DNA of 64,000 bases from Escherichia coli (GTDB taxonomy: Bacteria > Pseudomonadota > Gammaproteobacteria > Enterobacterales > Enterobacteriaceae): NCBI RefSeq assembly GCF_003019035.1, contig NZ_CP027447.1. One strand, 5' to 3'. This document shows positions 22,717 to 57,568 of the stretch, one piece after another. Each line of letters begins with the position of its first letter. Position 1 is the stretch's first letter. The notes beneath the pieces were generated by a model, which made no database searches, had not been told where the DNA came from, and was given only the letters and a program-made list of their open reading frames with translations. Position numbers and translations under genes: made by a program.

Positions 22717-22920
22717 CACTTTACCTTTAACAATACAACCTAAGCAGTTGGCGTAATTGTTGTGCTCTGATTACCTGCTCAGCGACATTAACCGGACAGA
22801 GGTCAGACTAATCATACACCTCATCGCAGCGGCTGGCGCAAAGGGTTAAAAAATTCACATTCTGTACAGCAAGTGACCTGCTACACTGCTTCAACACTAC
22901 CACTCAGAAGGCAACTCACT

Positions 22921-23787
22921 ATGACAGACAATACTTATCAGCCCGCGAAAGTCTGGACGTGGGATAAATCCGCTGGCGGCGCGTTCGCCAATATCAATCG
23001 CCCGGTTTCTGGTCCGACGCATGAAAAAACGCTGCCCGTTGGCAAACACCCATTACAACTTTATTCGCTGGGAACGCCGAACGGTCAGAAAGTAACGATT
23101 ATGCTTGAGGAGCTGCTGGCGCTGGGCGTTACTGGTGCAGAGTACGATGCCTGGCTGATACGCATAGGCGATGGCGATCAATTCTCCAGCGGCTTTGTCG
23201 AAGTGAACCCAAACTCGAAGATCCCGGCATTGCGCGACCATACCCATAATCCACCGATCCGCGTGTTTGAATCTGGTTCGATCCTGCTTTATCTGGCGGA
23301 GAAATTTGGCTATTTCCTGCCGCAGGATTTGGCAAAGCGTACTGAAACGATGAACTGGCTGTTCTGGTTACAGGGCGCGGCACCGTTCCTCGGCGGTGGT
23401 TTTGGTCACTTTTACCATTACGCGCCGGTGAAAATTGAGTACGCCATCAACCGCTTTACCATGGAAGCCAAGCGCCTGCTCGACGTGCTGGATAAGCAAC
23501 TGGCGCAGCACAAGTTTGTTGCGGGCGATGAGTACACCATTGCGGATATGGCGATCTGGCCGTGGTTTGGCAATGTGGTGTTAGGCGGCGTATATGATGC
23601 CGCAGAGTTTCTTGATGCGGGCAGTTATAAGCATGTACAACGCTGGGCGAAAGAAGTGGGCGAACGTCCGGCGGTGAAGCGTGGGCGTATTGTTAACCGC
23701 ATCAACGGACCGCTGAACGAGCAGTTGCATGAGCGCCATGACGCCAGTGATTTCGAGACGAATACGGAAGATAAGCGTCAGGGGTAA
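22921..23787 (+). CDS. yghU: glutathione S-transferase-like disulfide-bond reductase
   Basis: ORF trimmed to MTDNTYQPAKVW start (288 aa); GST fold. Confidence 0.9.
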   Translation: MTDNTYQPAKVWTWDKSAGGAFANINRPVSGPTHEKTLPVGKHPLQLYSLGTPNGQKVTIMLEELLALGVTGAEYDAWLIRIGDGDQFSSGFVEVNPNSKIPALRDHTHNPPIRVFESGSILLYLAEKFGYFLPQDLAKRTETMNWLFWLQGAAPFLGGGFGHFYHYAPVKIEYAINRFTMEAKRLLDVLDKQLAQHKFVAGDEYTIADMAIWPWFGNVVLGGVYDAAEFLDAGSYKHVQRWAKEVGERPAVKRGRIVNRINGPLNEQLHERHDASDFETNTEDKRQG

Positions 23788-23818
23788 GTCGCAACATTGG
23801 CAGGCTTATCGCTATGTA

Positions 23819-23848
23819 GCCGGATAAAGCATTTACGCCGCATCCGGC
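23819..23848. repeat. REP (repetitive extragenic palindromic) element
   Basis: gccggataaagcatttacgccgcatccggc between convergent yghU and hybG; matches enterobacterial REP pattern. Confidence 0.7.
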
Positions 23849-23856
23849 TTTAATCA

Positions 23857-24105
23857 TCACGCGCTGGTAATGTCGTAATCCATTTGGCGCAGCGCGTCTA
23901 ATGTGGCTTTGGCTTCATCTTCGTCGATGATGCTCATGGCAAATCCGACGTGTACCAGCACCCACTGGCCCAGCAGATCGGCAGGGTTACCTTCACAAAT
24001 CAGGGCGATATTCACGTCGCGCTTGATACCACATACTTCAACCTGCGCAAGCTGGTGAATATCCTCACCGACAGCCAGCACCTGGCCTGGAACGCCAATA
24101 CACAT
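23857..24105 (-). CDS. hybG: hydrogenase maturation chaperone (HypC family)
   Basis: 82-aa ORF starting MCIGVPGQV. Confidence 0.9.
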
Positions 24106-54338: not shown

Positions 54339-55076
54339 TTAAACTTTTCCGGCGGCTTCGCGCTCTGCGACTTCTTTATCGAGCTCGGCGATTTTTTGTT
54401 CCATTATCGAACGACAATGGGCAGCCAGCTCACGAACCTGATCTTTGCCATACTGACTGACGTCAATTGGCGGCAGCATTTCGACAATCACCAGACCGTT
54501 GTGCAGTCGATTAAGATTAATCTTATTCGAAGTTGTAGAGACGCACACGGGAATAATCGGGACGCCCGCCGCAATTGCCGCGTGAAATGCCCCGGTCTTG
54601 AACGGCAGCAGGCCGCGACCACGGCTGCGGGTTCCTTCCGGGAACATCCAGATGGAAATACGGCGTTTTTTGAAGTGATTCACGACTTCCGCAATAGTGC
54701 CGTGAGCTTTAGTGCGATTGTTTCTGTCGATCAATAAGTTGCCGGTTAACCAGTACAACTGCCCGAAGAAGGGGATCCACAGCAAGCTCTTTTTACCTAC
54801 CGTCACCGTCGGCGGTTGCACAATGTTCGATGCTGTGACCATGTCATAGTTGTTCTGGTGGTTAGCGATATAGATAGCATTGCCGTAGCTTTCAGCATCC
54901 GCAGGTTTGCGGCACTCAACTTTCAGGCCGAACAGCGGTGCAAGACGACCAAACATATGCCCAAAGGTGGCCACATGTTTCGGGTTACGCGGGCTGAAAA
55001 GGCAGTAAATGGAGCCGAATACACAGACTAAGATGCTGTAAATCACGGTAATAATAAGACGAAAGATATATAGCAT
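54339..55076 (-). CDS. plsC: 1-acyl-sn-glycerol-3-phosphate acyltransferase
   Basis: 245-aa ORF; acyltransferase HxxxxD motif (NHQNNYD). Confidence 0.9.
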   Translation of the reverse strand: MLYIFRLIITVIYSILVCVFGSIYCLFSPRNPKHVATFGHMFGRLAPLFGLKVECRKPADAESYGNAIYIANHQNNYDMVTASNIVQPPTVTVGKKSLLWIPFFGQLYWLTGNLLIDRNNRTKAHGTIAEVVNHFKKRRISIWMFPEGTRSRGRGLLPFKTGAFHAAIAAGVPIIPVCVSTTSNKINLNRLHNGLVIVEMLPPIDVSQYGKDQVRELAAHCRSIMEQKIAELDKEVAEREAAGKV

Positions 55077-55238
55077 AACACCCTCTGAAGGTCTGAGAGA
55101 CTGGCATTGTACGTCACCTGAAATCAGGTTAGGGCATTGTTAAAAGCCGCTCTCTGGAAAAGCGTATTGTTAATCGCAACGCATGAATAAACAACGGTTT
55201 CAAGGGAATTTTTATCGTTTCCGGGGGTAGAATACGCT

Positions 55239-55268
55239 GCCGGATGACGACTTAACGTTTCATCCGGC
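55239..55268. repeat. REP-like palindromic element between parC and plsC
   Basis: gccggatgacgacttaacgtttcatccggc. Confidence 0.55.
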
Positions 55269-55309
55269 GTTCCTTGCAAGCGGGAGGAAACAGCGCCCTC
55301 CCCGGCATA

Positions 55310-57568
55310 TTACTCTTCGCTATCACCGCTGCTGGCACGGCGAGGAGAGTCGATCTCAACACGATCGATACGCTGCAAACCGCGCATCAACGTACCGCGG
55401 CGTCCACGTTCGCCAGTGACTTTCTGTAGCTCTTCCGGACGCAGTTTAATTTTGCGTTTCCCAACATGAATGGTCAGCGTGCTTTGCGGCGGCAGAACGT
55501 ACAGTTGCGCCAGACCATCTTCTCCACGCGCGGCTTCTGCCGATGGAATGTTGATAATCTTGTTGCCTTTGCCCTTCGACAGCTGCGGCAGATCGCTTAC
55601 CGGGAACATCAACATACGGCCTGCCTGAGTGATTGCCAGCAGCATATCGGAAGCATCTTCAATCACCACCGGCGGCATAACATGGGCATTTTCCGGTAAG
55701 GTGATCAAAGCCTTACCTGCACGGTTACGCGCCACCAGATCGTTAAAGGTGCAGACGAAACCGTAACCCGCATCGGAAGCCATCAGCAGTTTCTGATCGT
55801 CGCTTTCCATCAGCATATGGTCAACGGTCGCTCCAGGCGGCAACGTTAATTTGCCGGTGAGCGGTTCGCCCTGACCACGCGCCGACGGCAGCGTAATCGG
55901 GTCGATGGCATAGCTACGACCGGTGGAATCAACAAACACTACCGGTTGGTTGCTCTTACCTTTCACCGCCGCTTTGAAGCTATCGCCCGCTTTATAATTC
56001 AGGCCCGGCGCGTCGATATCATGGCCTTTAGCGCTGCGTACCCAGCCCATCTGCGACAGCACAATGGTGACAGGTTCAGACGGCAGCATGTCGTGCTCGC
56101 TCATCGCTTTCGCTTCTTCGCGTTCCTGCAACGGCGAACGACGTTCGTCACCGTAGGCTTGCGCGTCTGCCTGCAGTTCTTTCTTCAGCAGGTTATTCAT
56201 TTTACGCTCGGAAGCCAAAATGCCCTGCAACTGGTCGCGCTCTTTTTCCAGCTCACTCTGCTCACCGCGAATCTTCATCTCTTCCAGTTTGGCAAGATGA
56301 CGCAGTTTCAGTTCGAGGATCGCTTCCGCCTGGGTTTCCGTAAGGCCAAACCGCGACATCAGCGCCGGTTTCGGTTCATCTTCATTACGAATGATCTCAA
56401 TCACTTCGTCGATATTGAGAAACGCCACCAGCAAACCTTCGAGGATATGCAGGCGCTTGAGGACTTTCTCCAGACGATAGTTCAGTCGGCGGCGCACGGT
56501 ATCGCGGCGGAACACCAGCCATTCGGAGAGGATTTCCAGCAGGTTTTTCACCGCCGGACGACCATCCAGACCGATCATATTGAGGTTAATGCGATAGCTC
56601 TTTTCCAGATCGGTGGTAGCGAAGAGGTGGTTCATCACCTGATCCATATCCACGCGGTTGGAACGCGGCACAATCACCAGACGGGTCGGGTTCTCGTGGT
56701 CAGATTCATCGCGCAGATCGTCAACCATCGGCAGCTTTTTGTTGCGCATTTGCGCAGCAATTTGCTCCAGTACGCGCGCACCTGAAACCTGATGCGGCAA
56801 TGCGCTGATAACCACCGCGCCATCTTCTTTCTTCCAAACCGCGCGCATACGCACTGAACCACGTCCGTTCTCGTAGATTTTACGAATCTCGGCGCGCGAA
56901 GTGATAATTTCCGCTTCAGTCGGATAATCCGGCCCCTGCACGATATCCAGCAGCTGATCGAGCGTGGTTTTCGGCTGGTCGATTAATGCGATTGCCGCCT
57001 GAGCCACTTCACGCAGGTTATGCGGTGGAATATCGGTCGCCATGCCGACGGCAATACCGGTGGTGCCGTTAAGCAAAATGTTTGGCAGACGGGCAGGCAG
57101 CATTTTCGGCTCCTGCAAAGTGCCGTCGAAGTTTGGCACCCAGTCAGCCGTCCCCTGCCCCAGCTCGCTCAATAGCAGCTCGGAATATTTCGACAACCGG
57201 GATTCGGTGTAACGCATTGCCGCGAACGATTTCGGATCGTCCGGCGCACCCCAGTTCCCCTGACCATCAACCAGCGGATAACGGTAAGAGAACGGCTGCG
57301 CCATCAGGACCATCGCTTCATAACAGGCACTATCGCCGTGCGGATGGTATTTACCCAGTACGTCACCGACGGTACGGGCCGATTTTTTAAATTTGGCGCT
57401 GGCATTCAGGCCCAGCTCAGACATCGCATACACAATGCGGCGCTGAACAGGTTTCAGACCATCACCAATAAACGGCAACGCACGGTCCATGATCACGTAC
57501 ATGGAGTAGTTTAAGTAGGCGTTTTCCGTAAATTCATGTAGCGCAAGGCGCTCTGCCATATCGCTCAT
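55310..57568 (-). CDS. parC: DNA topoisomerase IV subunit A
   Basis: 752-aa ORF; GyrA/ParC family with active-site region AMRYTE. Confidence 0.95.

Follow-up and report, generated by a model that had tools for sequence, protein, structure and literature searches.

Two palindromes with a common outer stem lie at gene ends in the 64-kb stretch of Escherichia coli chromosome analysed here, which we call the window. The first, P1, is gccggataaagcatttacgccgcatccggc at positions 23819-23848, inside the 69-nt gap between yghU and hybG; the second, P2, is gccggatgacgacttaacgtttcatccggc at positions 55239-55268, inside the 233-nt gap between parC and plsC. An initial annotation of this DNA presented P1 as a textbook REP and P2 as its relative. 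The question is whether both are members of the REP family and, if they are not, what separates them and what each may do to the RNA that contains it.

The answer is ordinary known biology, and its biological weight is small: REPs, the polymorphism of their copy number between strains, their targeting by IS621 and their role as hairpins at mRNA 3' ends are all established already. It carries a caution, namely that a palindrome of the form GCCGGAT...ATCCGGC is insufficient for calling a REP.

The two palindromes and their genes

The annotated sequences and positions are exact, and both palindromes are real inverted repeats. A search for such repeats gives outer arms of 8 nt for P1 (23818-23825 and 23842-23849) and arms of 9 nt separated by a 12-nt loop for P2 (55239-55247 and 55260-55268), with 100% complementarity in each case. 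The pattern GCC[GT]GAT-N8-30-ATC[CA]GGC matches only P1 and P2 in the 64-kb window, against 0.06 matches in dinucleotide shuffles. Folding z-scores, computed on 38-mers, are -2.8 for P1 on the + strand and -4.3 for P2 on the - strand. Perfect inverted repeats of at least 9 bp are common in the window (32 k-mer hits, spread over about 18 loci, where shuffles give 5.7) and, because they are so frequent there, a hairpin by itself is unremarkable.

The yghU reading frame (22873-23787, + strand), taken from the list of open reading frames and from the yghU annotation in matching genomes, ends with a TAA codon at 23785-23787, 28 nt upstream of the GTAG of P1. The hybG reading frame (23857-24105, - strand, from the same list) ends with the tandem stop codons UGA UGA, placed at 23854-23859 on the - strand from the frame and the sequence. 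On that strand, the hairpin of P1 starts 8 nt past the first hybG stop, or 5 nt past the doubled UGA UGA. Both palindromes had been described as lying at convergent gene ends, which is true of the pair formed by yghU (+) and hybG (-) but not of parC (55310-57568) and plsC (54339-55076): these are in tandem on the minus strand, with plsC downstream of parC.

P1 is a slightly decayed y-type REP

The names y-type REP and BIME-2 belong to the nomenclature of Gilson, Bachellier and Hofnung. REPs are written here with their GTAG first, according to the convention of Ton-Hoang et al. 2012 (PMC3333891).

The number of copies was evaluated identically for the two palindromes, by blastn with word size 11 and E up to 10 on 5426 complete E. 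coli genomes. The 43-mer of P1 is found in at least 40 places per genome in 5425 of these 5426 genomes. REPs are a family of about 600 members per E. coli genome (PMC3333891).

A more sensitive comparison uses a covariance model, R1, built from an alignment, A1, together with the known two-helix structure of REPs. Alignment A1 is based on 31 copies with a 5' GTAG, 20 of them unique, extracted from 170 kb of strain MG1655. When the window is scanned with R1, filters off, the sole significant match is full-length and covers positions 23816-23848 on the + strand, with 30.2 bits (E=7e-6). Applied to MG1655, R1 gives 37.8-60 bits to 40 REPs, including about ten copies outside the training set, 17.9-27.9 bits to three decayed copies, and 12-15.5 bits to the wrong strand of true REPs. 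The score of P1 is thus lower than those of the canonical K-12 REPs and higher than those of the decayed K-12 copies.

The anatomy of P1 accounts for the details. In REP orientation (23816-23848, + strand), it consists of a 5' GTAG followed by an imperfect hairpin and reads GTAG-CCGGATAAAGCATTTACGCCGCATCCGGC; on the - strand it is the iREP GCCGGATGCGGCGTAAATGCTTTATCCGGCTAC. The y consensus derived from alignment A1 is GTAGGCCGGATAAGGCGTT[TC]ACGCCGCATCCGGC. Compared to the published y REP, TGCCGGATGCGGCGTAAACGCCTTATCCGGCCTAC (PMC11208160), P1 has two transitions and a 1-nt deletion. The missing nucleotide is one G between GTAG and the stem: the GTAG at the foot of the hairpin (23816-23819, + strand) overlaps the stem by 1 nt, its last G doubling as the first stem base, and the alignment of P1 to R1 has a 1-nt gap, with GTAGCCGG in place of GTAGGCCGG. 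In the inner part (23826-23841, + strand), compared with alignment A1, we find the canonical AA/GC two-base stem mismatch (23826-27 opposite 23840-41), G>A substitutions at 23828 and 23831, and the loop TTTA at 23832-35. The two substitutions yield A.C mismatches in the RNA of the + strand and G.U wobbles in the RNA of the - strand, which is the hyb strand; folding the whole yghU-hybG gap gives -22.9 kcal/mol for the - strand and -18.5 kcal/mol for the + strand.

Copy number, profile score, GTAG and stem mismatch all identify P1 as a genuine member of a high-copy family, and it has the other attributes of a y-type REP of the BIME-2 kind, with an outer stem GCCGGAT/ATCCGGC, a TTTA loop and an extragenic position. 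It is not a textbook one, however: P1 is a solo element, its 1-nt deletion and two G>A changes, the latter weakening the inner stem, leave it at 30.2 bits against 38-60 for canonical copies, and a strict consensus does not detect it. Indeed, a search with the 34-nt y-REP consensus, at up to 3 mismatches, finds nothing in the window, because P1 combines two substitutions with a deletion that shifts its tail. The RefSeq copies of MG1655 and W3110 contain no repeat features.

The REP-associated transposase TnpA_REP (RAYT) binds only if both GTAG and the stem mismatch are present, and its cleavage also needs GTAG (PMC3479197; PMC3333891). The loss of 1 nt in the spacing of GTAG, together with the weakened inner stem, suggests that P1 may be inert for TnpA_REP.

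P2 has the outer stem of a REP and little else

With the same blastn settings, the 44-mer of P2 is found in a median of 1 place per genome, with a maximum of 2, in 5425 genomes, and it is at least 99% identical in 5238 records. The initial annotation proposed a whole-genome search in which uniqueness would speak against a repeated family; P1, with its 40 places or more, came through this search, and P2, with its median of 1, did not. The uniqueness of P2 is established with BLAST at word size 11 on the genomes and with the profile on 234 kb of E. coli sequence.

Model R1 gives P2 a score of 9.3 bits on the - strand and 8.3 bits on the + strand (E = 2-3.6), with the outer 7 bp alone aligned. 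This score falls among 26 chance-level matches in the window and below the antisense echoes of true REPs (12-15.5 bits), and the K-12 orthologue of P2 likewise scores 9.3 bits. The foot of the hairpin has no GTAG on either strand: the sense strand reads GAAC there, the opposite strand CGCT. There is no mismatch in the stem either, GCCGGATGA/TCATCCGGC being a perfect 9 bp, and a perfectly palindromic stem abolishes the binding of TnpA_REP (PMC3333891). A search of Rfam returns just two chance-level matches near P2, both below the gathering score.

Since P2 occupies a single place per genome, scores at the level of noise, and lacks both GTAG and stem mismatch, it does not belong to the present-day REP family. 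The supposed relation to P1 comes down to the outer 7-bp stem GCCGGAT/ATCCGGC, the only part that the two palindromes share. That both would nevertheless belong to the same REP family, at convergent gene ends, is very unlikely: chance would provide the pattern GCCGGAT..ATCCGGC 0.06 times per window, and P2 has the outer stem of a y REP, the 30-nt hairpin length, and a TTAA loop to compare with TT[TC]A, but stem and length are all that it really has in common with y-type REPs, it is found in 1 place per genome against at least 40 for P1, its 9.3 bits (E=2) are surpassed by antisense echoes of real REPs, the two features needed for the binding of TnpA_REP are missing, and parC and plsC are not convergent. 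Copy number, GTAG and stem mismatch are thus what separates the true member, P1, from its look-alike, P2.

A polymorphic slot between yghU and hybG

Both palindromes had been considered ordinary core-genome features. This applies to P2, which is fixed in E. coli, but not to P1, whose slot is polymorphic. Of the 5426 complete E. coli genomes, 5417 contain a match to a 701-nt piece around P1, which strain SCU-301 has with 100% identity. The allele of the window is nevertheless a minority type, found in 829 of the 5426 genomes, a number consistent with the 797 records in which blastn finds the exact 43-mer of P1; a two-REP gap similar to that of K-12 is found in 3750. It is known that the number of BIMEs at a locus varies between strains (PMC3333891).

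In MG1655, the gap is 122 nt long and contains a y REP (46.6 bits), a 13-nt linker and an inverted z2 REP (56.3 bits), in the layout of a BIME-2. The y + z2 pair is present in this gap in K-12, ABU 83972 and CUVET17-972; in the window, the scan with R1 gives a single REP in the gap, and thus no BIME. ABU 83972 has a third allele (locus L089, 260-430), with a full y REP starting with GTAG (59.1 bits), the linker, and a z2 iREP (56.3 bits) followed by a remnant, GCATCCGGC, directly before tttaatca. The same 9 nt, GCATCCGGC, form direct repeats on both sides of the linker and z2, and a deletion between them would yield the right junction of the window. The left flank of the window and the P1 REP itself have also diverged from the other alleles, and for this reason the alleles of the gap are old haplotypes.

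In CUVET17-972 (locus L088, NZ_CP115370.1 739309-739856), an IS621 is inserted in the same gap, directly after ATCAGGCCT of the z2 iREP. IS621 belongs to the IS110 family, with its bridge-RNA recombinase, and its natural target is ATCAGGCCTAC in z-type REPs (PMC11208160); the insertion in CUVET17-972 agrees with this published target. The allele of the window does not offer such a site: it has no z REP, and its tail, ATCCGGCTAC, does not match ATCAGGCCTAC. A long gap in HH45 (locus L087, 175-325) was considered as a third REP form and rejected: its extra 150 nt or so are poly-C/poly-G junk, located in the z2 iREP tail at its CT core, the core site of IS621, and the long gap probably results from misassembly at a REP or IS621 site.

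The REP-associated recombination mentioned in the initial annotation is supported at this slot, where one-REP, two-REP and IS621-disrupted alleles are now documented across 5426 E. coli genomes. These alleles could matter for the processing of the 3' end of the hyb operon and for REP-PCR typing.

The parC-plsC gap across enterobacterial species

We compared the parC-plsC region of 80 enterobacterial species (loci L007-L086). The synteny of the two genes is found in all 80, and in 76 of them a hairpin of -10 kcal/mol or lower lies within 45 nt of the parC stop, with a sequence that is specific to each genus. In the window this is hairpin 1, GGGAGGG-N7-CCUCCC (55282-55302, - strand, -11.7 kcal/mol), which starts 7 nt past the parC stop and is conserved in position. 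P2 (55239-55268) comes next on the - strand; its sense RNA is GCCGGAUGA-AACGUUAAGUCG-UCAUCCGGC, with a folding energy of -17.2 kcal/mol and no U-tract after it. Among the 80 species, P2 is present in the five Escherichia loci (L007-L011) and there alone; the other 75 retain hairpin 1 and lack P2.

In the Escherichia loci, P2 lies within a segment of about 70 nt, specific to the genus, between hairpin 1 and a block upstream of plsC. The block on its plsC side, aaaatttcccgtaaaa.cgttgtt.attc...ttgcgattaacaatacgc, is shared across genera. Within Escherichia, the 140 nt next to plsC are almost unchanged, while the part next to parC diverges. All five loci have a P2 hairpin of -15.8 to -19.3 kcal/mol that keeps the outer stem, invariant save for one change of G-C to G-U. 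The E. albertii hairpin, at -19.3 kcal/mol, differs in most of its inner 14 nt and forms an inner stem anew.

The origin of P2 can be conjectured from these comparisons. P2 may be what is left of an old REP that entered the region after parC in the ancestor of Escherichia, has since lost its GTAG and its mismatch, and survives as a solo hairpin; we regard this as a tentative reading, somewhat doubtful on present evidence. In its favour, P2 appears as an insertion when the gap is compared with those of Citrobacter, Enterobacter and Klebsiella; its 5' foot is GTAa in Escherichia sp. E1V33 and, in E. albertii, GTAc, R1 giving the latter copy 17.2 bits (E=0.004 in 15.7 kb); and an ungapped comparison of P2 with the y REP gives 24 identical positions out of 34. 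Moreover, Salmonella enterica subsp. arizonae (locus L012, 958-1040) has a BIME of two E. coli-type REPs in the same slot, directly after the parC stop, with 23.6 and 39.6 bits according to R1. These REPs take the place of both hairpin 1 and P2, and no other parC-plsC gap that we checked outside Escherichia contains any. However, the Salmonella REPs stand where hairpin 1 would be, and not after it, which points to a separate event; the inner 16 nt of P2 match the y REP at 8 positions out of 16 which, given that palindromy halves the number of independent positions, is not significant; random sequence of the same composition would, by extrapolation, provide about 4 such outer-stem palindromes per genome; and no intermediate form appears among the compared loci.

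It seems unlikely that P2 arose by chance and has no function, or that it is a neutral relic. It is true that perfect 9-bp hairpins are common, with about 18 loci in the window, that evolution is fast on the parC side of the gap, and that no RNA 3' end is mapped at P2 in K-12. Against this, five Escherichia species retain the outer stem despite strong divergence of the inner 14 nt and of the 3' flank, the E. albertii version re-forms its inner stem, and the folding z-score of P2 is -4.3. Two natural variants of P2, both C>U, keep their pairing as G.U in the sense RNA alone, which is a weak hint of constraint at the level of RNA; but two G.U-compatible variants could be due to chance, about 1 time in 4. 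The hairpin could also persist by template-switch mutation in a quasi-palindrome, and not by selection.

On the sense strand of P2 (55248-55279, - strand; around 995-1030 in loci L007-L011), one can read AAGG(A/U)A, followed after 7-8 nt by an AUG, two codons and a stop. The resulting mini-ORFs, MKR*, MKC* and MRH*, occur in all six of the six Escherichia variants, with the AUG buried in the stem, and the 3-codon length is kept in E. albertii even though most of its inner hairpin differs in sequence from that of E. coli. The mini-ORF probably results incidentally from the GGATGA stem and the TT(G)A loop. If P2 were a selected RNA element specific to Escherichia, neither REP nor relic, which is highly improbable, the mini-ORF or a ribosome-sensitive hairpin could tune the fate of the parC 3' end or read-through to plsC.

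The slot of hairpin 1, right after the parC stop, has a different content in Pseudocitrobacter (loci L037 and L076), where it contains another repeat-like palindrome, ccctctcccc...ggggagaggg.

What the hairpins may do to RNA 3' ends

Two stable GC-rich hairpins just downstream of stop codons could be taken for intrinsic (Rho-independent) terminators, P1 of hybG and yghU, and P2 of parC; relatives of hairpin 1 do have T-runs in some genera, with at least 5 T in the next 8 nt after the post-parC hairpin in 17 of the 80 species. We find this quite unlikely. A consensus terminator scan of both strands in 23600-24000 and 54900-55500 finds no terminator-like site, the tails of P1 and P2 are not U-rich on either strand, and in K-12 a Rho-termination region lies past the yghU-hybG gap on either strand. 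A promoter scan of the two gaps gives zero sites, and we found nothing relevant in the literature on a parC/plsC terminator.

Adams et al. 2021 (PMC7815308) place these two Rho-termination regions of K-12 at 3139530 (-), antisense to yghU and 64 nt past the gap, and at 3139969 (+), antisense to hybG/hybF and 254 nt past the gap. In aerobic Term-seq data of the same strain, which has the two-REP allele, neither the REPs nor P2 nor hairpin 1 coincide with a listed dominant 3' end (PMC7815308). The initial annotation supposed that the palindromes mark transcript 3' ends; the K-12 data do not show this at either site, and the Rho regions lie beyond the yghU-hybG gap. The hyb operon, which is anaerobic, and parC may have been too weakly expressed in those Term-seq conditions.

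Because the Rho regions lie beyond the gap on both strands, we infer that both convergent transcripts cross the REPs. Their position fits a model in which PNPase and RNase II shorten Rho-terminated RNAs as far as a stable stem-loop that has no U-tract, in some cases a REP (PMC6061677). Under this model, the yghU and hybG transcripts of the window would both run through P1 and be ended further on by Rho; the 3'-5' exonucleases PNPase and RNase II would then trim them to the stem-loop of P1, and the mRNA upstream would be protected. P2, transcribed in the 3' region of parC, would be a second U-less stem-loop blocking 3' exonucleases, and an exonuclease barrier is its most likely role, one that is compatible with an origin as an old REP.

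Both P1 and P2 resemble the U-less protective 3' stem-loops of Dar & Sorek 2018 (PMC6061677), being stable stem-loops downstream of an open reading frame with no uridine tract, although their assignment follows from structure and position, and the K-12 dataset has no mapped end at either. Annotated REPs account for 24% of this class (PMC6061677), and since they are no more than that, a non-REP hairpin such as P2 fits in it. On the whole, it is likely that P1 is a decayed y REP in a polymorphic slot, that P2 is a single-copy hairpin that is not a REP, and that both would act by stopping exonucleases.

The distance of 8 nt between the hybG stop and the hairpin of P1 leads to another conjecture for the hyb strand. 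According to Liang et al. 2015, as cited in PMC5082802, a REP that lies no more than 15 nt from a stop codon causes ribosomes to stall and sets off trans-translation. P1, known here by its position, resembles the stop-proximal REPs of Liang, Rudd & Deutscher 2015 in this respect, as far as they are described in PMC5082802, and it may stall terminating ribosomes and lower the output of HybG. It differs from them in that hybG ends with tandem UGA UGA codons, and that the K-12 stem starts 16 nt after the stop.

The sole dominant Term-seq end of the parC-plsC gap in K-12 lies away from both hairpins, at 3163495(-), or about position 55090 of the window, 14 nt before the ATG of plsC; it is a strong 'orphan' end, scored as not Rho-dependent (PMC7815308). 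The end points to a short leader RNA or to processing immediately upstream of plsC. It falls in the plsC-proximal part of the gap (55077-55213, - strand), which is outside both palindromes, near-invariant in Escherichia and partly conserved across genera. The block contains no match to the sigma-70 consensus; it is probably a promoter, an operator or a leader of plsC. Its conserved core has an inverted repeat, TTGTTtATTC ... GATTAACAA, common to many enterobacterial genera.
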